64,000 bases of DNA. Origin: a virus. The position numbers were made by a program, and so were the translations under genes. Numbering within the stretch: position 1 is the stretch's first letter; every line of letters begins with the position of its first letter. Shown here piece after piece: positions 17,248 to 54,652 of the stretch. Where the stretch lies: positions 1-64,000 of the IMG/VR virus record IMGVR_UViG_3300045241_000115; one strand, given 5' to 3'. The notes beneath the pieces were generated by a model, which was not told the DNA's origin, did no database searches, and worked only from the letters and a program-made list of their open reading frames with translations.

Positions 17248-17544
17248 TTAGAAACGCCTGGGCTGCGGGAGGGACTCTGGGCGAAGCAGCGGGCGAGGCT
17301 CTGGGATGGTTTCGACCGCCTGATGCTGTGGCGGTGTCGTGTCCTTCCTGATGTGCGGGCCCGGCAGGTCGGGCGGATCGGGCGGCGGCGCTATCGGCGC
17401 ATCGACCACCCTTGGGTCGGGCTGCCACGCGTGTTCGATGATGACCATCGGCTCCGGCGACTCCCGTTTGGCATCGAGATCGGTCGGCGGCGTCGGCACA
17501 TCGGCCGCGTGCAAGAGTGGTGGGTCGGGTTCGGGTTCAGCCAT
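17248..17544 (-). CDS. Proline-rich hypothetical protein
   Basis: Overlaps the fibre stop; AAAGGA RBS. Confidence 0.55.
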   Translation of the reverse strand: MAEPEPDPPLLHAADVPTPPTDLDAKRESPEPMVIIEHAWQPDPRVVDAPIAPPPDPPDLPGPHIRKDTTPPQHQAVETIPEPRPLLRPESLPQPRRF

Positions 17545-19657
17545 GGGCCATCCTTTCGATCTTGTCGTCTAATTGCGCGATGGCGCGGAACAGGTGCGCC
17601 ATCATCGTCAGCGGATCGAGGAACTCTTTGCCGGTGGGGCTTTCGCTGTCCGGCCCGACCACAACAGCATCGGGGATCGTCTCGCGCAGTTGCTCGACGA
17701 TGAACCCATGCTCTACGTGTCCACCGCCCGCGATCCAGTCGAAGGCGTTCGTCGGCGTCGCGCAGATCGCGCGCAAACTGTCAAAAGAGCCTGCGGCGCG
17801 CACGTTGGTTTTGCGATCCAGGGTGGAGGACGGGTAATAGACCGGCACCAGCACAAAGAGGCCGTTGTTTGCCAGAGACATCAGGTGGCCGCCGCCGCCT
17901 TGGTAATTTCCGCCGCCATCCATGTGACCGAAGTTCATTTGGTTGACGACCTGGAACCCCATCGCATTGCCGTCGCCCACGCTCCATGCGGTGACGGTCG
18001 GCTGCTGCCCCGGATTGCCCAAGGACATGAGGCGTCCGTTGTGGCTCGTGATCGAATTGTTGCAATTCAGGTTGCCGTCGAACTGCCCATCGCCATACGA
18101 GCGGATGTATTGCGCATAGGCGCCGGCGCTACAGTTGAAAGTGGAGTCGATTTGCGCCGCGCCGTGGATGATCAGTCCGGTGTTCGAGATGATGTTGCCG
18201 CCGGCGAGGAACTGTCCGTTGACAGTCTCGTTGCCCCAGATCTGCGAATAGCTTGCATAGAGCTGATAGCAGGAAATCTGGCCACTGACGTCGAAGTTGG
18301 CGCAATGCAGACTGCCTGCGACATAAAAGCTGCCGTTGCACTGGCCAGACCCGTAGAGCGTCATATAGCCGTTGTTGTCGAACACGGTGTCGGCGCGCGT
18401 CGGATTGCCAGAGCCGTCCATCTGGCCGAGCCACAAACCGCTGCCATCGACCCACATCCCCTTGGCGACGCCAGCGCTCGTGCTGTAAGCACAGACCGAT
18501 GGCGCGCCACCAAGGCTCAATATCCGCGAGCCGTAGGCGCGGATCGCTCCTGACACCTGGAAGTTCGCGACACCGTCGAGGAACATCGACTGGCCGCCGG
18601 CGCAATACCATGTGCGGTTGCCTGTCTGGCCGTCCCAGCTATCGAACCATGAGCCGGCCCACTGTCGGTAACGGAAGCGGCCATCCCAGAAGTTGATGAA
18701 GTCGCCGACATTCGCGAACCACACGCTCGATCGAAAGCCGGAGGCCGCGGCCACATACAGGCCGGAGTTGATGTTCAACTGTCCGCTGAGTGTGCCGCCC
18801 GTGAGCGGCAGATAGTTGCCGACGAGCGTGTTGCTCCATCCGACCGTCGCGAGCTGGCCAACATAGACGCCATCGACCGCGGCGACGACGAACGAGCTGT
18901 CCCAGCCGAACGCTGTGCGGTGCGACAGGAAGTTGCCGCCGAGGCCGGGATAGTTGATGCCCTGGCCGCCGACGCCGAGCGGTCCCGTCATCTGGCCGCC
19001 GGCGATCGGCACGTAGGGAAGCAGAGCGCCGCCCACGGTCGGCGGGCGCGAAAAGTTCACGACGCCGGTCGCGCGATTGATCGACATCGGCGTGTCGAGA
19101 TAGGCGCCTGCGTCATTGAAGCTATTGATGTCGAGATTGCTGCCGGCGTTGGCTCCGACCTCGGGCGCGTTGTCGGGCAGCGATATCTGCCAGCGCGCAC
19201 TCGCTCCGGTGTAGCCATTGATGGAGGTATATTGCCCAGCCTGCCGGACGAGGTTCACGCTGCCCGACTGACCGGCCGGCGCTTGGATTTGCAGCGTCGG
19301 GGCGTTGATATAGAGCGGTCCCGTCAACGTGCCGCCAGTGAGAGGCAGGTAGCCGACACCGACCGCGCCTTGCGCGACCGTCGTGATCGCTTGACGGAAG
19401 TGCGTCTGCAGCGCCGCGAGACCGCCCGGCGTGCCGTCGTCCAGCATGTCCTGATTGATTTCGTCGGACGTGAACTGGCCGATCATGTGCGAGATCAGCG
19501 AAGCCTGCCGCCACACCTTGTTCAGTTGCACGCTGAGCGCGGTGCCCGTCGAAAACCCAAGCAGCCGCGCGGTGAAGCCCGCCGAGATATAGTCGGCCTG
19601 CGTCATCACGTTCGCTGCCGGGTCGCCGGCAAACGCCAGGAAGTCGTTCGTTGCCAT
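17537..19657 (-). CDS. Tail fibre with C-terminal S74-like chaperone
   Basis: MATNDFLAF..QLNKVWRQ anchor after DUF2612; YLPLTGGTL repeats; SSTLDRKTNV..HGFIVEQL..coiled coil. Confidence 0.85.
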   Translation of the reverse strand: MATNDFLAFAGDPAANVMTQADYISAGFTARLLGFSTGTALSVQLNKVWRQASLISHMIGQFTSDEINQDMLDDGTPGGLAALQTHFRQAITTVAQGAVGVGYLPLTGGTLTGPLYINAPTLQIQAPAGQSGSVNLVRQAGQYTSINGYTGASARWQISLPDNAPEVGANAGSNLDINSFNDAGAYLDTPMSINRATGVVNFSRPPTVGGALLPYVPIAGGQMTGPLGVGGQGINYPGLGGNFLSHRTAFGWDSSFVVAAVDGVYVGQLATVGWSNTLVGNYLPLTGGTLSGQLNINSGLYVAAASGFRSSVWFANVGDFINFWDGRFRYRQWAGSWFDSWDGQTGNRTWYCAGGQSMFLDGVANFQVSGAIRAYGSRILSLGGAPSVCAYSTSAGVAKGMWVDGSGLWLGQMDGSGNPTRADTVFDNNGYMTLYGSGQCNGSFYVAGSLHCANFDVSGQISCYQLYASYSQIWGNETVNGQFLAGGNIISNTGLIIHGAAQIDSTFNCSAGAYAQYIRSYGDGQFDGNLNCNNSITSHNGRLMSLGNPGQQPTVTAWSVGDGNAMGFQVVNQMNFGHMDGGGNYQGGGGHLMSLANNGLFVLVPVYYPSSTLDRKTNVRAAGSFDSLRAICATPTNAFDWIAGGGHVEHGFIVEQLRETIPDAVVVGPDSESPTGKEFLDPLTMMAHLFRAIAQLDDKIERMAHG

Positions 19658-19675
19658 TCCGGCGTGTCCCCTTGT

Positions 19676-39519: not shown

Positions 39520-42500
39520 CAGTGCAGCGTCCTGGCTTTGAGTTCTTGCACTTCGGCGTGAAGCTCCTGCACTGCTCTGACCAAGGCGGCGACGATAGGC
39601 GTGGTGCTGAAGCTCAGTCTTTCACTCTTAGGATCGACCTCGCCGTCAAATCCTATGCCGCATGGTATTGCTGCCTCGGGGATAATCTCGTGGACCTGCT
39701 GGGCGCCAAAGCCGATGTCCTCACGATCATCAGGCACTAGCTTGCGGTTGATGCGAAAAACACGACGATACCGGACAGGTCGCAGCCGCAGCACTTCAGC
39801 CAACCCATATTCTGACGGCACGATGTCCATTTTGACGCGCTCATCTGAGCTAAGGTCTTGATACGGACCCATGCCCCCGACATAAAGCAGGTTGTTGTAG
39901 CACCACCTGTCGTTGCGATTATACCATTGGTAGCCGTAGCCAGCATTATACCATATCAAGTCGCCATTGGAGCCGTTCCAAAGCCAGAACCAACTTCCCG
40001 CAAACGAGAATTGCCTGTTAGCGCCATTCGGAAAGAAGCCGAAGTTGCCGTCGTTCTGAGCAAACACGCCACCTTGGGCAAGGACCGAATTGGCGGCATA
40101 GAAATCCCCGTTGGCACGCATACTCGCCTTAAGCGCAGCATTGGCGACGAAATCGTAATTCCCGTTTCCGGTGTTATAAGAAAAATAGTAGTTCGTGTTG
40201 TCGGCCCAATAGATGGCATTGCCCGCGTTCATGATGTAGCTGCCCGAGCGGATGATGCCGGTGACGGTCATTTTAGGCGTGGTCACTTGCAGGTTCGCCA
40301 GACCATCGACGTTCAGGTTCATATTCGTGCCGTCGGAGAACCCGACGTAGCCCTGTCGCGTGCCAGCCGCGTTGAAGAACCCGACGTAGCCAGCATTCGA
40401 GGCGCCGCCTGGATTGAGTTGAGCGTTGCCGGTGCCTTGCCCAGCCGTCACAGAGCCACCCACTGTGGCGTTGCCGGTCACGTTCAATCCGACGATGTTG
40501 GTCAGTCCGCTCGCGCGGTTGATGGTGATCGGACTGTCGAGGTATGTGCCGGCGTCGTTGAAGCGTGAGACGGCGAAGTTCGACCCCGTGTTGCTGCCGC
40601 TCTCTGCCGTGGCGTCGGCCATAGAAATAGTCCAGCGCGGGGCTGCGCCGGTATAACTAGCGATCTGAGCACCGAAACCAGATGCGCGGGTCAGATTGAG
40701 GTTCGCCCACTGGCCAGCAGCCCCGTTGATACCAACCGCGTTGGTCACGGCGAGACTGCCCGACAGGGTTCCCCCTGTGAGCGGAAGATACGCGGAGAGC
40801 GACGCGGAGACCTGTGCGGCGGTTTGATAGCCCGACGGGTTGGACGCCGCGTAGCGGCTGGTATCCGTGGGATGAACGTGATCCGCGCGCGCCCACGTCG
40901 TGCCGGTGCCGACAGCGGCAGTCCCGTCCATCACGGGTGTAGTCGTGGACGCCGGCAACACCGCAACCACGTCGGCGTTGGTCAGCACCACCGCGCCTTG
41001 GCGCCCATTGAAGCTCGACACGCCCGCGACGCTGGCAGCGAGCGCGTTCATCACAAAAGCCGTGGTGGCCCAGAATGTCGTGCTGTCGCCGGGCGAGCGC
41101 GTGTTGCCGGCATTGTAGAGCGGATAGATGCCGGCAGTGTCAGTCCACACCGCCTGCGAGGCGCCCGACGGGATCGTAATAGTGCCACCGCTCGTGCCGC
41201 GAACGGTGGTCGGCTGTGTCGTGGTATTGTTGATCGTCCATAGCAGCCGGATCGTCGAAGCGACCGGCATGGTGATCGTGGATGGCGCGGTCGGGCTGCC
41301 ATAAACGTAAAGATAGGCCCAATCCACTTGATCGACCGATGGCGTCGCCGCGTTCGACGTCACATCCACAAGGCCGCGCGCCTTGTTGCGATCGGAATAT
41401 TGCTTCGTCGCGGCTTGCAGCGCAGCGGTCGGATCAGCAGCCAGGAGCAGCGGCTGGTAGACGTTCACGTTGCCGCCGGCGGCCGCGAGAACATCATTGC
41501 CAGCGATCACAAGACCAATGACTCCACCGGCAGCGGCGACGAGGTTCAGGCGTCCGCTCGACACCCCTACCCCGTAGCTGGTGCTGAATAGGGCGATGTG
41601 CTTCGACAGATCGTAGATCGAACCGCCGACCGCGTTGCCGAACGACAGCCCGACATTTGCCGTCAGCAATCCATTGAATGTGGCGGGTCCACTGACGGTG
41701 AGCGCGCCGGTCATTTGCAGCCCATTCACCGTGAAACGCGCAATCCGGTTTTGATTAGCATCGGATGCGGTGTCGTTCTGCCCGCCGTTGTTGACCCACA
41801 CATCGAGATATTCATTGCCCCATGCGCTCGTTGAATACCCAGAGCGCAGCGACGCAGTGAGGCGCGCCCCCAGGTCCGCGCCGCTTTGGAACGTGCCGGC
41901 GAACCGCAGCTTGCCTTCCAAAGAATTACCGACGCCGGGTGGGCCTACCTGTAGCTGGGCGCTCGTCGCGGTCGGCAAGACGGTGACGACCAGCGCGCCA
42001 GTCATCGTATCGCCGGTCACGTTTACCCACCGCGCATCCCCTGCGGCTGGCGTGATCGTGTTGTTGTCAACATACTGCTTGGTCGCGGCGTGCATTGCGG
42101 CAGTTGGATCGGCGGGAAGCGTGATGCCGTTTGAGTTGATCACCGCTATGTCAACACCAGCCTTCACGAACACATGTTGACCACTAGCATCAACGTTGTA
42201 ATTGAGGCGAGCAGAAGAAACGCTGAAACCGTAAGTGCCGCCCCACAGACTGATGTGGTGCGAAAGATCTGTGATACCACTGGTCACACTACCAAGCGAC
42301 AACCCAGCATTTGCCGTCAGCAATCCATTGTTAACTAGCGCACCAGAAAGTGTGCCGCCGCTAAGAGGTAAGTAATTTCCAAGGTCGCCCGAATTTGCCA
42401 GTTGTCCGACATGGTTGCCGTCGACATACATATCGGCATGGCCGTTGACCCAGGCGAAACCAAAGAGGTTGCCGCCACCAGAGATACCAGCGTAACCGAG

Positions 42501-44525
42501 ACCGACACCCGCAATATTCAAATTACCACCGGAGCCAAGGGTCATAACTTGTTTGGCGGTGGAGGCTGCGGTCTGCTGAAACCACGCGAACGAAGTGGTG
42601 GGCAGGAAGCCGAGGAAGTTATTGAAGAAATCAACCTCTGCCTGACCGGCGTTGAAATTCCACCCGATCGAACCTACTGCCCCAGGCAGTGCCGGGATCG
42701 TGCCACCCAGATTGCCAAAGACCGATAAGAGGGAGGCCGCCGCTCCCGAGTTCGCCGTCAGCAGCCCACCCACAGTGAGCGGACTGTCAGAGACGTTCCC
42801 TCCTGGGGCGAGATGCAGCAGGCGCGTTGTGGCAGAGTAGAAATCGTGCACCGCGCCGCTGCCGGCGATGTAATTCAGGGTGTGGTCGGTGACCGAGAAG
42901 CCATAAGCGGCGCCATACAGATCGATGTGGTGCGAAAAATCGCTTGGCGTGCCTGAGACTGCGGAACCGAGCGAGATGCCAAAGTTGAAAGATGAACGCT
43001 GCATGAACTGCGACGTGCTGTTGAATGTCGCAGCCACATCCACCGCCACACTGCCGGAATAGAGCCGGATAAGCGTGGTTTCGACCGATTGATTAGCCCA
43101 GAACGAAATGTCTAACCGGTTGGAATAGTTGCCTATCATAAACTGCGAACCGGCAGGACTTGCGTTGCCGATCCATATCGCGGCGTAATGACTGGCCGTG
43201 TCCAGGTAGAGGTTCGCGCCGAAGCTTCGCCAGCCGGTCTCCGGTGCATTGATCGTCAGCGTTCCGGTCATGGTATCGCCGGCAACGTTCACCCATCGCG
43301 CATCGCCAGCCGCCGGGGTGATCGTGTTGTTATCCACGTATTGTTTCGTCGCCGCTTGCAGCCCGGAGGCGGGATCGGCGGCGAGCATCAACGGACCAAA
43401 GAGATTGATGGCGCCGGTAGCGCGGATGATTTGCAGTCCGTTGCCGATAAACGAGCCATCGTCGGCGAAGCGATGGATGATGAAATTGGTGCCAGCGTTG
43501 CCGCCGCTCTCGGCCTCAGTGCCGCCGAACTCCACCGACCAGCGCGTCTTGCCTTGACGTTTGCTCTCAAAGTAACCCGCTGCCGTCCCGGCGGCCTGTG
43601 TCGTGTTCCATTTGACCGCAGGCCAGTCGCTACCCGTGCCGGTGACATACAGCGCCGAGTCGGTCGCCGACTGGATCGTCAGTGCGCCGGTCAGCGTGCC
43701 GCCTGTCAACAACAGGTATCGTGCATCACCCTGTGCCTGCGTCAGATAGCGCGCGTCGCCCGTGCGCATGTTCAGCCCATCGGTCGCCGCCGTCGCGTCC
43801 GCCACCTGCGTGATGCGGTTGTTCAGCATCGACAATGTGCCGTAGAACTGGGCGGCACCGGCAAACGTGCCGAAAATCGTGCTGCCCTGCACGCTCATGA
43901 CGATCGCGTTAGCGCTGCGCGATAGCCCGGTGCCGTCGGCCGCACCAAGCTGCAAGGCCGGCGCAGCAACGGTGCCGTTCGGCAATTGCAGCGGCCCGGT
44001 GAGCGCGCCACCGGTCAAAGGCAGATAGGCGCCCTCGACGCCTGTGATCTGCGCGTCAACGTATTGCTTGGTCGCCGCCTCCATCGGATCGACCGGGTTT
44101 TGGAACAGATACAGCGGCCCCTGCATCGTGCCGCCGACCAGCGGCAAATAACCCGCCATGCCGCTGTTCGCGATGACCCACTGGCTGCTGGTCGGGTCCG
44201 TGTAGCGGATGAAGAGCTGCGTCGAAACGCTGTCCCACCACAGATCGCCAGAGTTGGGCGAGCCTGGTGGCGTGTCCGAGATCGTGACCGAGGCGCCGCC
44301 GCCAGGACCGCCCGACGCCGCGCTGTTGTACAGCAGCTTGCGTCCCGTCGCGTCCATGTCGGTCGGCACACCGACCCAGAGTTTCATCGGGTCCGCAAGC
44401 TCGATGCCAAGCTCGCCCACGAGCAGCAGGTTCTCCGGCGGCGCCTTGTCCGGATCCACCGTGTAAAGATGCTGAGCGAGATCCCAGCGCTCGCCGCTCA
44501 CGCGCGTCCGAACGTCGTCCGGCAT
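39519..44525 (-). CDS. Long fibre protein (about 1668 aa) with S74 chaperone
   Basis: Multiple AATKQYVD and YLPLTGG modules; SSDERVKMDI..IGFGAQQV. Confidence 0.85.
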   Translation of the reverse strand: MPDDVRTRVSGERWDLAQHLYTVDPDKAPPENLLLVGELGIELADPMKLWVGVPTDMDATGRKLLYNSAASGGPGGGASVTISDTPPGSPNSGDLWWDSVSTQLFIRYTDPTSSQWVIANSGMAGYLPLVGGTMQGPLYLFQNPVDPMEAATKQYVDAQITGVEGAYLPLTGGALTGPLQLPNGTVAAPALQLGAADGTGLSRSANAIVMSVQGSTIFGTFAGAAQFYGTLSMLNNRITQVADATAATDGLNMRTGDARYLTQAQGDARYLLLTGGTLTGALTIQSATDSALYVTGTGSDWPAVKWNTTQAAGTAAGYFESKRQGKTRWSVEFGGTEAESGGNAGTNFIIHRFADDGSFIGNGLQIIRATGAINLFGPLMLAADPASGLQAATKQYVDNNTITPAAGDARWVNVAGDTMTGTLTINAPETGWRSFGANLYLDTASHYAAIWIGNASPAGSQFMIGNYSNRLDISFWANQSVETTLIRLYSGSVAVDVAATFNSTSQFMQRSSFNFGISLGSAVSGTPSDFSHHIDLYGAAYGFSVTDHTLNYIAGSGAVHDFYSATTRLLHLAPGGNVSDSPLTVGGLLTANSGAAASLLSVFGNLGGTIPALPGAVGSIGWNFNAGQAEVDFFNNFLGFLPTTSFAWFQQTAASTAKQVMTLGSGGNLNIAGVGLGYAGISGGGNLFGFAWVNGHADMYVDGNHVGQLANSGDLGNYLPLSGGTLSGALVNNGLLTANAGLSLGSVTSGITDLSHHISLWGGTYGFSVSSARLNYNVDASGQHVFVKAGVDIAVINSNGITLPADPTAAMHAATKQYVDNNTITPAAGDARWVNVTGDTMTGALVVTVLPTATSAQLQVGPPGVGNSLEGKLRFAGTFQSGADLGARLTASLRSGYSTSAWGNEYLDVWVNNGGQNDTASDANQNRIARFTVNGLQMTGALTVSGPATFNGLLTANVGLSFGNAVGGSIYDLSKHIALFSTSYGVGVSSGRLNLVAAAGGVIGLVIAGNDVLAAAGGNVNVYQPLLLAADPTAALQAATKQYSDRNKARGLVDVTSNAATPSVDQVDWAYLYVYGSPTAPSTITMPVASTIRLLWTINNTTTQPTTVRGTSGGTITIPSGASQAVWTDTAGIYPLYNAGNTRSPGDSTTFWATTAFVMNALAASVAGVSSFNGRQGAVVLTNADVVAVLPASTTTPVMDGTAAVGTGTTWARADHVHPTDTSRYAASNPSGYQTAAQVSASLSAYLPLTGGTLSGSLAVTNAVGINGAAGQWANLNLTRASGFGAQIASYTGAAPRWTISMADATAESGSNTGSNFAVSRFNDAGTYLDSPITINRASGLTNIVGLNVTGNATVGGSVTAGQGTGNAQLNPGGASNAGYVGFFNAAGTRQGYVGFSDGTNMNLNVDGLANLQVTTPKMTVTGIIRSGSYIMNAGNAIYWADNTNYYFSYNTGNGNYDFVANAALKASMRANGDFYAANSVLAQGGVFAQNDGNFGFFPNGANRQFSFAGSWFWLWNGSNGDLIWYNAGYGYQWYNRNDRWCYNNLLYVGGMGPYQDLSSDERVKMDIVPSEYGLAEVLRLRPVRYRRVFRINRKLVPDDREDIGFGAQQVHEIIPEAAIPCGIGFDGEVDPKSERLSFSTTPIVAALVRAVQELHAEVQELKARTLH

Positions 44526-44773
44526 TACCGCCCGCTCCACCATTCGTACAAGTCCGCGATCTCCCGGAGCCGCTCGGCAATCAGCGCGTTGTGCTTTGCC
44601 GCTTGCGGCCACATCGCCGGATGGACAACCCGGCCCGGCTCCGCTCGCAGATAGGCGCGCGCGACCTTCAACTCCGTCAGCAGATCGTCAACCACCAACG
44701 CGAGGCGTGCCTTTTCCTCACGCTGGCGTTGGACGATTGCCTCCTCGATCTCGAACACGTCGGCGCGCGTCAT
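44525..44773 (-). CDS. Hypothetical protein
   Basis: TGATG and TAATG coupling. Confidence 0.55.
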   Translation of the reverse strand: MTRADVFEIEEAIVQRQREEKARLALVVDDLLTELKVARAYLRAEPGRVVHPAMWPQAAKHNALIAERLREIADLYEWWSGR

Positions 44774-46233: not shown

Positions 46234-47220
46234 TTAGATGCCGTCGCGGTATCCAATGGTCTCCGGATACGGGCTTTCGACCTGCCCCATCCGTGCCCAG
46301 TACGTCGTCAGGTTGTAGAGGCTGCGCCATTCCAGCGGTGTTCTCTGCAACGGCGTCATCGGGAAACGCACTTTGTCGTATTCCTTCGTGTAGGCGATCA
46401 TCCGCTGCGTGTTGCCGCTGCCGCGGTTCTTCAGCCACTTCGACGCCTGGATGTTCAGCGGCTTGGCGCCGTTCGTCGTGGTCAGGTTGTTCTCTTGGAT
46501 GTAGCGCAGCACCGAGACGTTGCCGGCCGAGCTGACCTTGGTCGAGATCAACAGCGACATCTGCAACGGCGGAATGCGCAACTCGGACGGCACGATTGCG
46601 AAGCCCGACGCTTCCCACACGCTTTCGAGCAGCTCGTTGATCTGCGCGATCATCGTATCGGGGTTGGTCGTCCAGGCACCGCCGGTGACGTTTGCGACGT
46701 TGGTCACCTGCGACAGGTTCGTGATGCCTGTCGTGCCGATCAGCGGATCACCGATATAGACGAGCTGATCGATGTCCATCTGATTTTTGAGCCGAAGCGC
46801 TTGGAACTTCTGCTCATCGATCGGACGGCCAAGCTGCATCGCCGAGGCGAGTTCCGGCATCGTGTAGGACAGCTCTTGCGCCCACAGACGCAGGGGCAGA
46901 GCGGTCTTGCCGATGTCCAGCGATACGCTCTGGATCGCGTTGGTGGCTTTGCCGATCCACGAGATGCCTTGCGTGGCAAAGCCACCCGAGGCGCCAAACG
47001 TGGAATTGGTGAAGGACGACCACTCGTCGCCGGTCGTGATGTCGGATCGCAGGTCGATATCGCGTGACCATGTGATCGACACCAGCGGCTCGTGCAGTGC
47101 GGGATCGAGCCGTTCGAGTTCGCCGAGCAGGAAGGCGCCGGCGCTGTCGCGCGTGACGCCGTCGAATGTTTGCAGACCTCCGTACGTGGGAGGGCCGCCC
47201 ATGTTCATGCCGTCTGGCAT
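46234..47220 (-). CDS. Major capsid protein (DUF2184)
   Basis: GAFL.GELERLD..L.EPL, TWSRDIDLR, GRPID.QK, YPETIGYRDGI. Confidence 0.9.
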   Translation of the reverse strand: MPDGMNMGGPPTYGGLQTFDGVTRDSAGAFLLGELERLDPALHEPLVSITWSRDIDLRSDITTGDEWSSFTNSTFGASGGFATQGISWIGKATNAIQSVSLDIGKTALPLRLWAQELSYTMPELASAMQLGRPIDEQKFQALRLKNQMDIDQLVYIGDPLIGTTGITNLSQVTNVANVTGGAWTTNPDTMIAQINELLESVWEASGFAIVPSELRIPPLQMSLLISTKVSSAGNVSVLRYIQENNLTTTNGAKPLNIQASKWLKNRGSGNTQRMIAYTKEYDKVRFPMTPLQRTPLEWRSLYNLTTYWARMGQVESPYPETIGYRDGI

Positions 47221-49008: not shown

Positions 49009-52000
49009 TCAGACCGTGGTGCAGCGAACGATGTGCTGCTTGCCGACTTTCTCGATTTCGTAGACATCGAATGCGATGCCGTGCCGCAGCAGCACTTCGT
49101 TCTCTGAGACGTAGGATTTGTCTGCCGCCCATATGCCGAGTGCCGGCGTTCCCTTTCGGGCGACGATTTCGTAGATCACGCTCTTGGATGAGAACGCCGC
49201 TTCCTTCGCCATGCTGGTCGAAGTGAAACCGAGGCGCTGTGGCCGCACGATTTTGCCGGCCGCCAGACCGTCCTTCCATTGCTGCAGCATCGCGTCGGGA
49301 ACGTCCTCGCCGCGTCGCAGTATCGCGTCCGCGTGCAGCACCGCGTCGGGATGCTCGAACAGAAGGTCGATGTCATCGACCATTTCCTGGGCGTATGCCG
49401 GCGCCGTGGCGTCGCTGCGCAATGCACCGTTGATGCCGCCGGACCCGCCTTTGTAGGAGACACATGCGGCCTTGCCGGCCTTGCTCACGTCGGGCTTGGT
49501 CCACCACGAACGATCGAGCGAGGGGCAAATAGCTCTGGCCTGCGGAGCGGCGGCGCTGGGGACGTCGTGTGCCTGCTTACGTTTTGCCTGCGCTATCTCG
49601 AGGCGCTTCTGGTTCGGCGTTCGGACCGCGTTGGGGCTGGGTGTGGTCGAGGAGGACGGGGACGCAGATGTGGCCGGACTCACGGTTCCGACCGGCGTAC
49701 CGCTCAGCTTTTGGATCCATTGGTTGGCAAGTGTTTTGACGGAAGGATCGAGCGATGTGTTCGCCAGCGCGGTGATCTTCGCGATCTTCGCTGCGCTGAT
49801 GTTGGAGGGATCGACCGCGATCTTGAAGATTTGGGCATGTAGCGATGCCGCGCTTTGCGGCGGCGGCGTTGAGGCCGCTGGCTGAGGCGTCGGCGTCGCG
49901 GCCGGTTTGGGCGGTACGGACGCGGTCGGTTTCGGCGCCGCCTTGGCCGAAGGCGTGACGCCATGCGCCGCGCCCACATGGGCGATCATCGTGTTGGCGT
50001 ATTTGGCGATCGATCCGTGTTTATAGTTGCTGGCGAGCTGCTGGATCTGCGCGGCCGCCTCGTGCGGGTCGGTGCCTTTTGTCAGCAATTCCTTGGTGAG
50101 CGCGTGCAGCTTCTTGCCGGCCGGCGTCGACCAATAGGCGGGCGGATGAGGCACGGTCTGCGCCGCAGCCGCGACCTTGCTCCCACCACTGCCGCCGCCG
50201 CCCCCACCGCCGCCCGATGTGAACTCGCCACCGCCCGGGCTGCCCTTCGGCACGCGTGGGTGCTCGCCTTCCACGAAGTCGGCGTCGGCGTAATCGATGT
50301 CCTCGCCGTTGTCGTAGTCGATGTCAGCGCCATCGTCGGCCTCGCCTTCGTCCTCGTCCTCGAGGAATTCCAGCGGGTCGAAGCCCAGCATGGCGATGAC
50401 ATCGGCGGGCGTTACCTCGAGCAGCTCGTCGTCGGGATCCTCGTCATCCTCGTCCGGATCCGGCAGCGGAGATCCGACCTCGCCCCAATGGGCGTCGGGA
50501 AGTTCTCTGTCCCCGTCGTCATCGGCCCATGCAGCGTCCGCAGTGCCGCCGATGCCGGCCGATTGCTGCCATTGCGCGAACACGACCGGCGAGATGTAGG
50601 ACTGCAAGGCGATCGTCGGCGTGTTGCCGAGCTTCTGCGAAACGATGGTGGCGACGTGTTTGACCGCGCGCTTGTACTCGCGCTCGTTGGTCGGCTCCGG
50701 CGTTCTCTCCACTTCATCGAGCGCGGTCTGCGTGCCGAGGTGGGTGCGGAAATCCTTGGTCTTGAACGAGCCGTCGCCGAGCGAGTGGACGTGCTTGAGC
50801 AGCCCGCCTGCGTTGACACCGAACAGATCGCCGCGTGCGCCTGCGGCCTCTTTGCGCTTGAGCAGCATCTTGGCGATGCCGGGGTCCTGGATCGGCAGGT
50901 CGAGGGAGACGCCCTTCTTGCCGGTGAAGCGCAGCCGCACGCCGTCCTTCAGCGAGACGACGTGGCGACCTTGGAGTGTGGTGGCGCCGTATGCCTGCGT
51001 CTCAGCCCCGGTATCGCCGGTGCTGCCGGGCCGGATGCCGGTCGCCATGATCAACGCGGTCGCATCAGCCGCCTCGCGGGTCGCAAGCTCGCGCCGCGCC
51101 GCCTCGTTCTGTTTGCGAACGTCCTTGAACGCCTCGGCGAGCTTCTTGGCGCGCGCGAACTTCGCGGCCGCCTGTTTGGCGGAGAATTCCGCCGAATAGA
51201 CCAATTGCCTGCGACCCTTCACGTCGCGTCCGGTCGCCTGCAGTTTGGCCGCGGGATCGGGCGAATAGGTGACGTCGGTCCAGGCGGGCGGGAGCTTGAG
51301 CTTCTGGATGTGCTCAGGCAGGTCGGCGCCCGACGAAGTGACGCGTTTGCCGTTGGCGACCTTCGTCGTCTCGTGATGAGCGGCAGCGCCACCGCCGCCA
51401 CCGCCACCTGACGTGAACTCACCACCGCCAGGACCGCTTTTGACGCGCGGATGCTCGGACTCAACGAAGGCGTCGTAGCTGTATTCGGGTGTGCCGCTGT
51501 CGAGGATCGTGCATCGGCTGCCGCAGCGACCTTCGTCCACCAACGCCACGTGGTTGCAGAAGATGTTGCGCTGTCGGCCGAGGCCAGGAGCCGTCTGCTC
51601 GTAGTGCGCGTTGTACCCCACGCTGATCGCGCGCTTGCCGCGCTTGACCGCATCGATGCCGCGTCGTGTCGTGAAGATCAGATCCGCAAGCAGCAGGTCA
51701 TCGTAGGCGCCCTCACCGCGGCGCGGATTGGACACGTAGCCTATGGCGAGATCGGAATAGTTGTCTGGCCCGACCGCATCGTACGGATGATCGTCCACCA
51801 GCGGTTTGCCAATGAAGCTGCGCACGCTGTCTGGCGAGAACACTTCGGACGCCTCGCGGTCGACGTGCACGCGCCCGCCCTGGTCGCCCTGCAATGGAGG
51901 GACTTCATTTTCCCAGTAAATCTGCGTGCCGGTGCGCGCGATGGGCACGTTGCGGCAGATCAGGTAGCCTTCGGCGGTCTCTTCCTGATTGGCCGAGAGT

Positions 52001-52023
52001 TTGGAGACGGTATGCCATTCCAT
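49009..52023 (-). CDS. Polyprotein: DUF2213 + type IB topoisomerase + ADP-ribosyltransferase
   Basis: GYLICRNVPIARTG..NHVALV..GRCG; PPAW, GIRPG, GKKG, KDFRT, LGNT, SYI; INGALR, RRG, FTSTS, ENEVLL. Confidence 0.9.
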   Translation of the reverse strand: MEWHTVSKLSANQEETAEGYLICRNVPIARTGTQIYWENEVPPLQGDQGGRVHVDREASEVFSPDSVRSFIGKPLVDDHPYDAVGPDNYSDLAIGYVSNPRRGEGAYDDLLLADLIFTTRRGIDAVKRGKRAISVGYNAHYEQTAPGLGRQRNIFCNHVALVDEGRCGSRCTILDSGTPEYSYDAFVESEHPRVKSGPGGGEFTSGGGGGGGAAAHHETTKVANGKRVTSSGADLPEHIQKLKLPPAWTDVTYSPDPAAKLQATGRDVKGRRQLVYSAEFSAKQAAAKFARAKKLAEAFKDVRKQNEAARRELATREAADATALIMATGIRPGSTGDTGAETQAYGATTLQGRHVVSLKDGVRLRFTGKKGVSLDLPIQDPGIAKMLLKRKEAAGARGDLFGVNAGGLLKHVHSLGDGSFKTKDFRTHLGTQTALDEVERTPEPTNEREYKRAVKHVATIVSQKLGNTPTIALQSYISPVVFAQWQQSAGIGGTADAAWADDDGDRELPDAHWGEVGSPLPDPDEDDEDPDDELLEVTPADVIAMLGFDPLEFLEDEDEGEADDGADIDYDNGEDIDYADADFVEGEHPRVPKGSPGGGEFTSGGGGGGGGSGGSKVAAAAQTVPHPPAYWSTPAGKKLHALTKELLTKGTDPHEAAAQIQQLASNYKHGSIAKYANTMIAHVGAAHGVTPSAKAAPKPTASVPPKPAATPTPQPAASTPPPQSAASLHAQIFKIAVDPSNISAAKIAKITALANTSLDPSVKTLANQWIQKLSGTPVGTVSPATSASPSSSTTPSPNAVRTPNQKRLEIAQAKRKQAHDVPSAAAPQARAICPSLDRSWWTKPDVSKAGKAACVSYKGGSGGINGALRSDATAPAYAQEMVDDIDLLFEHPDAVLHADAILRRGEDVPDAMLQQWKDGLAAGKIVRPQRLGFTSTSMAKEAAFSSKSVIYEIVARKGTPALGIWAADKSYVSENEVLLRHGIAFDVYEIEKVGKQHIVRCTTV

Positions 52024-52209
52024 GATGACGGGGCGCCTCCCCTGACCGACGAGGAACGACACAAGCAGCAAAAGTTGCGGCTGTGGGCTATGGAGTTGTC
52101 CTATTCCATGCCGGAATTAGACGACCTGATGCTCGGTCGGCCGCCTCGTCCGCCGCCGTCATTCTGGCAGCGCGTGAAGCGTTGGTTTCGGCGGCTTTAT
52201 CGCGACTGA
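52012..52209 (+). CDS. 65-aa antisense protein containing a major-capsid-like segment
   Basis: GGAG RBS; LRLWAMELSYSMPEL vs capsid LRLWAQELSYTMPEL; C-terminal FWQRVKRWFRRL. Confidence 0.65.
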   Translation: MPFHDDGAPPLTDEERHKQQKLRLWAMELSYSMPELDDLMLGRPPRPPPSFWQRVKRWFRRLYRD

Positions 52210-52248
52210 TAGACGCGCACGCGCCCGTTGCGCATCACGTCGCTGCGT

Positions 52249-52539
52249 TCATCGCCGAGTGACCTTGACGCGGCCTGACGGCATCACATCGATGCGCAAA
52301 ATGCGCCTGGTCGCGCTGTCCTTCGGCTTTTGACGTGCCGCCTTGGTTTTGGCGTTACGCTCGAACGCCGACTCCTTGCCCTCCCAGTACTCTTCCTCTT
52401 TCGGCTTCTCGGCCATGGCATCTACCCCTGTGATCGTGCCCTTGTTCTTGGAGCGGTAGAACACCTCCTCGCCCTTCTCCTCGCCGTACTGCTCCTTCAT
52501 GGCCGCGAGGATCTTCTCGCCCTTCGCCGTCAACGGCAT
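52249..52539 (-). CDS. Conserved head-module hypothetical protein
   Basis: MPLT.KG.KI..AM..QYG..KGE.VFY.S.NKG.I.G. Confidence 0.75.
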   Translation of the reverse strand: MPLTAKGEKILAAMKEQYGEEKGEEVFYRSKNKGTITGVDAMAEKPKEEEYWEGKESAFERNAKTKAARQKPKDSATRRILRIDVMPSGRVKVTRR

Positions 52540-52796
52540 CAGCCGTCTAACTCGCAGGGATCGATCATGTACATGACCGCCGACAGCATCGCCGCCTTGG
52601 CCTCTGGATCAACGGTCAACTCGCGCAACTGGTCGTGGATCAGGAAACACATCGCCAGCAGCACTTCGCCGCGCGAGTGGCCGACCGCCGCTTTATCCAG
52701 TTTCCTCGCCAGCGCTTCCACGCGATCCTTATCGAATAAGCGGCCCGGCTCCAGCGCATACAGAATGTCGTCGGTGAGCTGCATCACGGTTTCCAT
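52539..52796 (-). CDS. Hypothetical protein
   Basis: TGATG coupling. Confidence 0.5.
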   Translation of the reverse strand: METVMQLTDDILYALEPGRLFDKDRVEALARKLDKAAVGHSRGEVLLAMCFLIHDQLRELTVDPEAKAAMLSAVMYMIDPCELDG

Positions 52797-52869
52797 ACGG
52801 AGATCACCGTCGCGACGATCAGCACGAGCGCGATGTTGATGAGCAACTGTGCGGTGAGACGGTGCATCG

Positions 52870-53409: not shown

Positions 53410-54222
53410 TCAGTCAGGGATGATCGGCAGCGCGACGCAACGACAATTCCAAATCTGGCCGGGATGGCTGTGATAGTCGGGCGGATCAGACAGCGGCGGA
53501 TCATCCCAACTGTGCACCGAATGGTTGAGCTTGCGATGCGACGGCCGGACTTTCCAATCGCCCACCGTCTGCCAGATGTACTGCTCGGCACCGATATGCT
53601 TGGCCCGTGCCTGGGTCAGCACCGAGGCTGTGCGCGCCGTCTCGGTTCTGGCGATCAGCGTCGCGCGGTTCTTCAGCCATTCCTCCGTCGCCTTGGGATG
53701 CGCCTCGGCAAGCGCCTCCTCGATTTCCGCTGTGCGCTCGGGATATCGCGCCGAAGTCTCCAATGCGGCGACCGTGCGCTCGTGCACGCGCTCGGCGGCT
53801 TCGGTGGGCAATGACGTGATCAATTCGACCTGCTCGGCGAGTAATTGCTGCATGTGTTCGCCGGTCGGGGCGTTGCGGATTTCCATCTGCAGGCCGGCGG
53901 ACATGCGGGCGGTGTATTTCTGCCACGCCGTTTTGTTGCGTCGATTGACCTCGCGGATCATGCGCCACGCCGTCGCCCGCGCCCACGGCGTGATCGCCGT
54001 CTTATAGGCGCGCATCGCTTCGCGGATACGAGCGAGCTGCGCCGGCGTGAACGGCGTCTTGGGATCCTCGGGCGCATGCGCCTCGACGATGCGCGCGATA
54101 TGGCGCGCAGCCTGACGCAGTTGAGCGCCGTACGAGGCCTGAGCGTTGCGGGCCTTCTGGAATTGGGCCTCGGCTGCTTCCGCCTGACGTTGTGCTTTGC
54201 GGCGTTCCGATTGCGACGGCAT
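53410..54222 (-). CDS. MuF/gp7 head morphogenesis protein
   Basis: RATLIARTETAR, YIWQT.GD..VRPSH, HPGQIWNCRC. Confidence 0.9.
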   Translation of the reverse strand: MPSQSERRKAQRQAEAAEAQFQKARNAQASYGAQLRQAARHIARIVEAHAPEDPKTPFTPAQLARIREAMRAYKTAITPWARATAWRMIREVNRRNKTAWQKYTARMSAGLQMEIRNAPTGEHMQQLLAEQVELITSLPTEAAERVHERTVAALETSARYPERTAEIEEALAEAHPKATEEWLKNRATLIARTETARTASVLTQARAKHIGAEQYIWQTVGDWKVRPSHRKLNHSVHSWDDPPLSDPPDYHSHPGQIWNCRCVALPIIPD

Positions 54223-54226
54223 CGCA

Positions 54227-54652
54227 TCAGACGTTCGGCGGATCCTTGAGCGCCAGCGGGTTGTCGCGCGCCCATTGGTTCCAGGCAACCGCCAGATCGT
54301 AGTCGGCGAACTTGGCGTAGATCGGCCGGTTTGCGCCGTTGTTGGTCGCCAGCGCATAGAACATCTCGGTCGGTGTGCCGCGCGCGATGTCGGGAGCGAA
54401 CAGCGTGGTGCCTTCGCGCACGATCCAAGCCGGCGATTTGACCGGCGATGTGTCAGGCGGCGGTCCCCCCATCGAGCCGAGGATCACCGGCACGACCGGT
54501 ACCGCGCCCGTCTCATCGACGAGCCATGCCAGCACGGGGTTGTCGTGCAGGATCACCCAGGCGAGGCCGGGCCCGATACCATCGACGGGGTCGGGATTGT
54601 ATTCGCAGGTGACCAAAATCGAGCCGGTGACCGGTGCAACGGCGAGGGTCAT
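54227..54652 (-). CDS. Hypothetical protein
   Basis: ATGA-coupled to the portal gene. Confidence 0.6.
   Translation of the reverse strand: MTLAVAPVTGSILVTCEYNPDPVDGIGPGLAWVILHDNPVLAWLVDETGAVPVVPVILGSMGGPPPDTSPVKSPAWIVREGTTLFAPDIARGTPTEMFYALATNNGANRPIYAKFADYDLAVAWNQWARDNPLALKDPPNV

Follow-up and report, generated by a model that had tools for sequence, protein, structure and literature searches.

How does a phage genome come to carry, on the strand opposite to its late operon, a small open reading frame (ORF) that resembles part of a major capsid protein? We examined this question in a 64-kb window of DNA, the initial part of an IMG/VR virus record that comes from a soil metagenome and measures 73,959 bp. 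The late head module of this phage lies on the minus strand and includes a Mu-F-like protein, p85, p96, a DUF2213 fusion, a scaffold-like ORF, a cement protein and a PF09950 capsid protein. Between p96 and the DUF2213 gene, a gene caller predicted a protein on the plus strand (Table 1), which clusters with no other sequence of the protein collection. The evidence presented below favors interpreting this ORF as an accidental open frame across a nonfunctional recombination scar, probably not a maintained gene, over readings in which the peptide or its RNA has a role.

Table 1 Features of the locus and of one relative (L004); coordinates are window positions unless the relative is named
Feature	Position	Strand	Remarks
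GGAG	52003..52006	+	5 bases before ATG 52012; antisense of DUF2213 Val-Ser codons (GTC TCC)
65-aa orphan ORF (mini-ORF)	52012..52209	+	Stop TGA, then TAG
Spacer, 225 nt, between p96 stop and DUF2213 ATG	52024..52248		Absent from L009, L011 and L014
L004-homologous block: DUF2213 leader/SD and first ~7 codons of the L004 reverse HTH gene	52030..52063	+	blastn, local alignment
Capsid-like piece (QQKLRLWAMELSYSMPELDDLM-LGRP)	52066..52143	+	Family-HMM profile positions 107-133; inverted relative to the capsid gene
Pro-rich basic ORF tail	52144..52196	+	Minus strand may hold a degraded copy of p96 codons 62-79; weak
Probable degenerate duplicate of p96 3' end	52197..52247	-	RSDVMRNGRVRVYQSR-stop compared to p96 end RIDVMPSGRVKVTRR-stop
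p96, 96-aa upstream late gene	52249..52539	-	Orthologue of the gene abutting DUF2213 in L009, L011 and L014
Mu-F-like protein	53410-54357	-	
DUF2213/topoisomerase IB/ADP-ribosyltransferase fusion, 1004 aa	49009..52023	-	Pfam E 7e-17, 2e-11, 2e-7
Major capsid protein gene, PF09950, HK97 fold	46234..47220	-	Pfam E 2e-71; Foldseek
Capsid codons 107-133	46822..46902	-	Most conserved stretch of the family (110-133 = 46822-46893)
L004 84-aa HTH regulator gene	L004 4580-4834	-	phrog_16747 E 5e-7; phrog_323 transcriptional regulator E 2e-5

Some features of the genome as a whole deserve mention. Window positions 1-~280 and positions 73,780-73,959 of the record (G000) share up to ~150 nt, visible as matches of 23-49 aa at 98-100% in four of six frames, so that the record, although classed as linear, probably represents a closed or terminally redundant genome. 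A 270-aa domain is common to the minus-strand ORFs 17540-19675 and 39522-44687 (33% identity, E 3e-23). Direct repeats at the protein level occur at 38.9-44.7 kb and 61-65 kb, with short units at ~39-44 kb and 61-65 kb.

A first-pass annotation, made from the sequence, had described a 65-aa plus-strand ORF with a GGAG ribosome-binding site that overlaps the DUF2213 start head-to-head, and all these elements are found in the sequence. The overlap, which includes the DUF2213 ATG at 52023, measures 12 nt. Both the ATG and the GGAG of the ORF are the antisense of DUF2213 N-terminal codons (MEWHTVS), and the DUF2213 start, MEWH..., is the same in relatives. In the relative L004, the same antisense ATG is present without the GGAG, and the frame that it opens (MPFH...) stops after 11 codons. 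A sigma-70-like and intrinsic-terminator consensus scan of both strands across 51700-52700 returned zero promoter-like and zero terminator-like sites. The G+C contents by codon position of the ORF (0.67/0.46/0.72) are the most coding-like of the three frames, a periodicity that would follow from two of its pieces having kept their native reading frames, while its GC3 of 0.71 compares to 0.735-0.84 in six real genes. By our estimate, a stop-free stretch of 62 codons arises with a chance of ~0.16 at this composition. The predicted fold of the product is of low confidence (Atlas pLDDT 0.66, pTM 0.28), and searching the ESM Atlas with it gave a best score of 0.84, which is chance level. Among the sequencing runs listed for the stretch there is a single soil DNA run, probably its source, and no RNA run. 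An independent Logan contig from this DNA run covers 51000-52846 without differences, making an assembly artefact unlikely.

The same annotation had noticed a capsid segment within the ORF, and this similarity is genuine: residues 22-44 agree with capsid residues 110-133 at 18 of 24 positions, including 13 of the first 15. Pairwise BLASTP of the ORF against the capsid yielded an E value of 8e-9, and tblastx against the whole 74-kb genome in six frames yielded 5e-5. At the nucleotide level, blastn of the ORF region against the genome recovered just 41 nt at 78% (E 1e-3). When the 1078 six-frame ORFs of the genome were all compared with one another, the ORF/capsid match was the only cross-strand one, the remaining internal matches being direct DNA repeats. 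Together, the two protein-level E values and this singular position among the 1078 ORFs rule out chance similarity. A DGR template/variable repeat pair was also considered and rejected, as the mismatches are, by inspection, not adenine-specific. The capsid-family HMM aligns ORF residues 19-44 to profile positions 107-133 with 16.7 bits and extends no further in any frame. Against Pfam, the ORF had no match even at E 10, the PF09950 model included. On this profile evidence, the ORF is best described as holding a 27-position fragment of a family spanning ~330 positions, not as a PF09950 member.

For the capsid protein itself, the best Foldseek match of the model was the cyanophage Pam3 capsid (8hdt, E 3e-19). 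In an alignment of 119 homologues, positions L110, W113, E123, L124, S126, G131 and P133 are invariant, and the family consensus at positions 110-133 reads L.LWGMELSYT.PEL, followed by E, S and A. The segment was mapped on an AlphaFold2 model of the capsid (mean pLDDT 73, ~75 over the segment part), as the first-pass annotation had suggested, which placed residues 111-120 in a strand, 121-129 in a short helix, 130-135 in a turn and 136-155 in a long helix. From HK97-fold topology, we take residues 111-129 to be the strand that returns from the E-loop and then leads up to the spine helix; inter-subunit contacts are formed there in HK97 folds. Compared to the capsid family, the piece in the ORF has the invariant S126 and the near-invariant A127 replaced and one codon deleted. 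Every state across its central 15 residues (110-124) also occurs in the family, and the changes are concentrated toward the ends of the piece.

We then compared the piece to the phage's own capsid gene and to other capsids. The same residue is encoded in 18 of 23 aligned codons and, by our count, nine of the 15 codons with synonymous alternatives use a different one. The synonymous codon differences are as originally listed, with a nucleotide identity of 48/69. Random recoding of the peptide with phage codon usage predicts 49.5 +/- 2.2 nucleotides identical to those of the own capsid gene, and 49 were observed. Recent duplication of the phage's own capsid gene is thus rejected, in agreement with the earlier assessment, because the nucleotide identity does not exceed what the peptide forces and other capsids are just as close as the phage's own. 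The earlier idea of a mimic of the phage's own capsid stood in one part only; the match to the capsid family is real but not specific to the own protein. A capsid that is ~63% identical to it (P0039) likewise matches the ORF at 18/24 positions. Q108 and M115 of the ORF are majority states of the wider family, where the phage's own capsid has L and Q, while R111 and S120 are shared with the clade to which the phage belongs, R111 being seen in nine clusters only, the phage's own included. Among 80 distinct IMG/VR capsid gene segments, nucleotide identity to the piece ranged from 35 to 52 of 78, with 49/78 for the own gene. With equal peptide scores for P0039 and the own capsid, and DNA identity within the range of the others, the expectation that the piece would resemble and covary with the own capsid was not borne out. 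None of the 80 segments represents a near-exact donor (best 52/78), so the donor capsid would be an unsampled one if the fragment was captured passively. The data suggest that the piece either derives from an unsampled capsid lineage or encodes a peptide that has been kept for a very long time. As the copied segment is the most conserved in a large family, high peptide identity with randomized synonymous sites is expected from any unsampled relative.

Conservation of the peptide invites a functional interpretation, in which it would imitate the capsid strand-helix and act as a decoy against capsid-sensing defence or as a dominant-negative factor for the assembly of superinfecting relatives. 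The copied segment being the most conserved part of the family is consistent with such a role. So is its location: in the model, it provides the strand and the helix that lead into the long helix, by textbook inference an inter-subunit contact region. The peptide is also conserved although its synonymous sites are fully randomized relative to every sampled capsid, and direct capsid sensing by defence proteins is established (CapRel, PMC9712102). However, an unsampled capsid donor would give the same pattern, the loss of S126, A127 and one codon would be odd for a faithful mimic, and the piece shows no special likeness to the capsid of this phage. The lack of homologues means that no covariation with capsids can be shown, and the arguments against expression discussed below apply here as well. 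For the membrane-tethered decoy or dominant-negative mini-gene that had initially been proposed, no support was found, and we consider a mimicry function quite improbable. The same low standing applies to its most specific form, a separately encoded capsid-epitope decoy that would have been observed soon after it emerged from the debris of recombination.

A role at the RNA level appears less probable still, to the point of being highly doubtful. Here, the inverted stretch in the minus-strand late transcript would be antisense to the capsid segment 5 kb downstream and regulate its translation or processing. Both segments belong to one late transcription unit in opposite sense, and the computed duplex energy amounts to -78 kcal/mol, but random synonymous recodings of the peptide give duplexes of equal or greater strength (mean -84, sd 9), 74% of them being no less stable. 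The identity of 49/78 corresponds to that expected from the peptide alone, the stretch has no Rfam match and its fold is not unusual (z -1.8 and -1.5). Since the nucleotides are not kept beyond the peptide, there is no sign of selection for pairing, which disfavors an antisense RNA.

Homologues of the ORF were sought in protein libraries drawn from ~15 billion proteins. A word search of a 5.8-billion-cluster collection at near and longer lengths returned the ORF itself only, and a full HMMER scan of 1.84 billion representatives gave the ORF and two spurious matches, both eukaryote-like tandem-repeat proteins (P0122 and P0123) that were discarded as homologues. IMG/VR, JGI metagenomes and GTDB genomes were scanned with back-translated patterns, which detected no second copy of the ORF. 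Furthermore, ~96 related capsid loci (16 + 80) contained no second capsid-like copy and nothing like the rest of the ORF. The suggestion of a functional mini-gene thus found no support, with no intact-frame homologue in any collection searched. Orphan status is common among real phage accessory genes, and this counts against the scar.

The most informative evidence came from the junction at which the ORF lies. We compared 16 close relatives (capsid 49-88% identical) and then 80 more, with the junction visible in six of the close ones. In three of these (L009, L011 and L014), the stop of the p96 orthologue abuts or overlaps the DUF2213 ATG, and the spacer seen in the window is directly observed to be absent. 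In L003 and L005, other same-strand genes end a few bases before DUF2213, and in L004 an opposite-strand 84-aa gene occupies the slot. Counting the window, L003, L004, L005 and the group of L009, L011 and L014, there are five arrangements upstream of DUF2213. This varied DNA points to a recombination hot spot and to a lineage-specific origin of the spacer. Terminal inverted or direct repeats that would indicate mobile-element ends were not convincingly found at the spacer.

The DUF2213 head protein itself also varies in its cargo among relatives, with a 1091-aa form in L004 (4855-8130) and a 1363-aa form in L005 (4246-8337). In L003 (3185-4825), the DUF2213 domain is fused straight to scaffold-like sequence that constitutes a separate ORF in the window.

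The L004 gene in the slot is intact and has weak Pfam matches to HTH_23 and GcrA. Located within the late head operon in reverse orientation, it starts 21 nt from the DUF2213 ATG and is a singleton in IMG/VR according to a pattern scan. Window positions 52010-52052 directly matched L004 by blastn (84% over 45 nt, E 2e-7), and the homology continues to ~52063. The local alignment of the block scores 29, compared to a shuffle mean of 13.7 +/- 2.4, and none of 2000 shuffles reached 29. Where L004 reads MTEEQH, the window reads LTDEERH, and CCTCCCCCATGACC of L004 corresponds to CCTCCCCTGACC in the window, such that the L004 ATG has become CTG and 2 nt fewer are present. As a consequence of the 2-nt difference, the antisense-DUF2213 frame (MPFH...) is fused to the stump of the HTH gene and runs on in frame. 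The stump comprises nine aligned codons with zero synonymous and, by our count, ~6 nonsynonymous nucleotide changes relative to L004, a pattern that would be expected without constraint. A relationship of the ORF body to the L004 gene found no support (BLASTP E 9); just the leader and first ~7 codons are homologous. A resemblance of the ORF body to a GcrA-like HTH was likewise dismissed for lack of a Pfam match at E 10 and of a PHROG match at E 1.

The capsid piece starts directly after this L004-homologous block. Further downstream, the spacer contains sequence that may derive from p96. Positions 52142-52193 resemble p96 codons 62-79 weakly (score 23; 95th and 99th percentiles of the null, 22 and 24). 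The end of p96 is probably duplicated immediately behind its stop codon, recognizable as a 29-nt repeat at 72% with a 14/16-nt core (p 0.0013 for adjacent 62-nt segments; protein score p 0.016). This duplicated tail is probably real but the weakest of the three spacer fragments. Equidistant DNA, mixed residue states and a fragment-filled spacer fit best with the neutral alternative already raised in the first-pass annotation, capture of a capsid-gene fragment from a related phage.

Could such a composite nevertheless be a young gene, translated from the ATG at 52012 into a 65-aa peptide of recycled fragments? Its accessory role need not involve the capsid likeness and could, for example, reside in the basic amphipathic tail acting on a membrane or nucleic acid. 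The frame is open through three junctions, GGAG precedes the ATG by five bases, the G+C by codon position is coding-like and best in this frame, and the ORF was called by the gene caller. Moreover, the intact opposite-strand gene in the same slot of L004 indicates that reverse genes are tolerated there. Against this stand the lack of a homologue in the collections searched, start signals that are by-products of DUF2213 codons, the lack of a detected promoter or terminator in 51700-52700, the low fold confidence and the missing start codon of the ancestral reverse gene. From these sequence data, we judge an expressed young gene unlikely, although it would be the strongest of the functional readings.

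We therefore return to the recombination scar as the preferred explanation. This interpretation builds on lineage-specific DNA at a hot spot, stumps of genes, a lost ancestral start, borrowed start signals and the missing homologue; on a capsid fragment without the invariant S126, the near-invariant A127 and one codon; and on the lack of promoter-like or terminator-like sites and a GC3 below that of real genes. The locus has the hallmarks of a mosaic-junction remnant, with lineage-specific DNA at a variable boundary and gene fragments lacking starts or ends. In the lineage of the window, the spacer would have been built from leftovers at the hot spot upstream of the DUF2213 gene. On the plus strand, these would comprise, in order, the DUF2213 leader; the first codons of a reverse HTH regulator gene, intact in L004 and deprived of its start codon in the window; an inverted HK97-fold capsid-gene fragment of ~80 nt, probably contributed by an unsampled relative that branches close to the base of the phage's clade; and a degraded second copy of the 3' end of p96. 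They may have been joined when co-infecting phages exchanged DNA, by an illegitimate or microhomology-guided event, both order and mechanism being our reconstruction. With fragments joined in frame, stops rare at 62% G+C and an ATG provided by the antisense of MEWH, a gene caller sees a 65-aa protein, which we infer would not be expressed.

Several observations weigh against the scar. Three recognizable pieces in native frames within one stop-free ORF have a chance of roughly 1 in 15-20, a figure tempered by ascertainment bias as only open scars get flagged. The GGAG is at ideal spacing and missing from L004. The best donor reaches 52/78 nt, so recent passive capture needs an unsampled donor, and the lack of foreign states in the central 15 residues provides a weak, post hoc hint of constraint. 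Both the missing donor and the family-like center would be explained equally well by capture from an unsampled lineage of a sparsely sampled soil clade.

How does the locus relate to known systems? Like PF09950/DUF2184 capsids, the ORF has residues (19-44) that align to profile positions 107-133; unlike them, it covers only 27 of ~330 positions. Morons, in the Hendrix model, are accessory genes that have been inserted among the late genes of a phage and are transcribed independently of them. The spacer resembles them as a lineage-specific insertion between two conserved late genes, in a slot that holds a reverse HTH gene in L004. In contrast to morons, the ORF lacks promoter-like or terminator-like flanks and a family, and its start is borrowed from the antisense of a neighbor. 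As such signals are missing, it does not qualify strictly as a moron.

Capsid-derived triggers of defence are a further point of comparison. In T4, the Gol peptide, a short internal capsid segment, triggers abortive infection by the Lit protease. CapRel SJ46 senses the major capsid protein (PMC9712102). Capsid-sensing defences of these kinds make the decoy idea conceivable. Unlike in these systems, where the trigger is the capsid protein itself, the putative decoy would be encoded by a separate ORF. We know of no description of a separately encoded capsid-segment decoy; if true, the mimic would be the first known to us.

As a scar, the locus would be ordinary but a clean worked example of how a phage ORFan can originate. 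Three unrelated fragments, the 5' end of a regulator gene, an inverted capsid piece and the tail of a neighbor, together with an antisense start, suffice for a protein annotation, which serves as a warning that intragenomic peptide mimicry should not be read as function. A similar case is Island3 gp68 of a mycobacteriophage, an orphan ORF that stands as an insertion when the genome is compared to a close relative, and of which the last 18 residues repeat the end of the neighboring gene (Pope et al. 2011, PMC3029335) and which was read as the footprint of recombination between short sequences (PMC3029335). Both are small ORFs without homologues at a gene boundary with a short copy of the neighbor's end, here probably the p96 tail. 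Unlike Island3 gp68, the proposed scar also includes a piece of a distant gene in inverted orientation (from the capsid gene at a distance of 5 kb or from another phage), together with the 5' remnant of a regulator gene that runs in reverse, and its ORF is opposite to the operon strand. The closest known kind is, thus, the orphan ORF at a mosaic joint.
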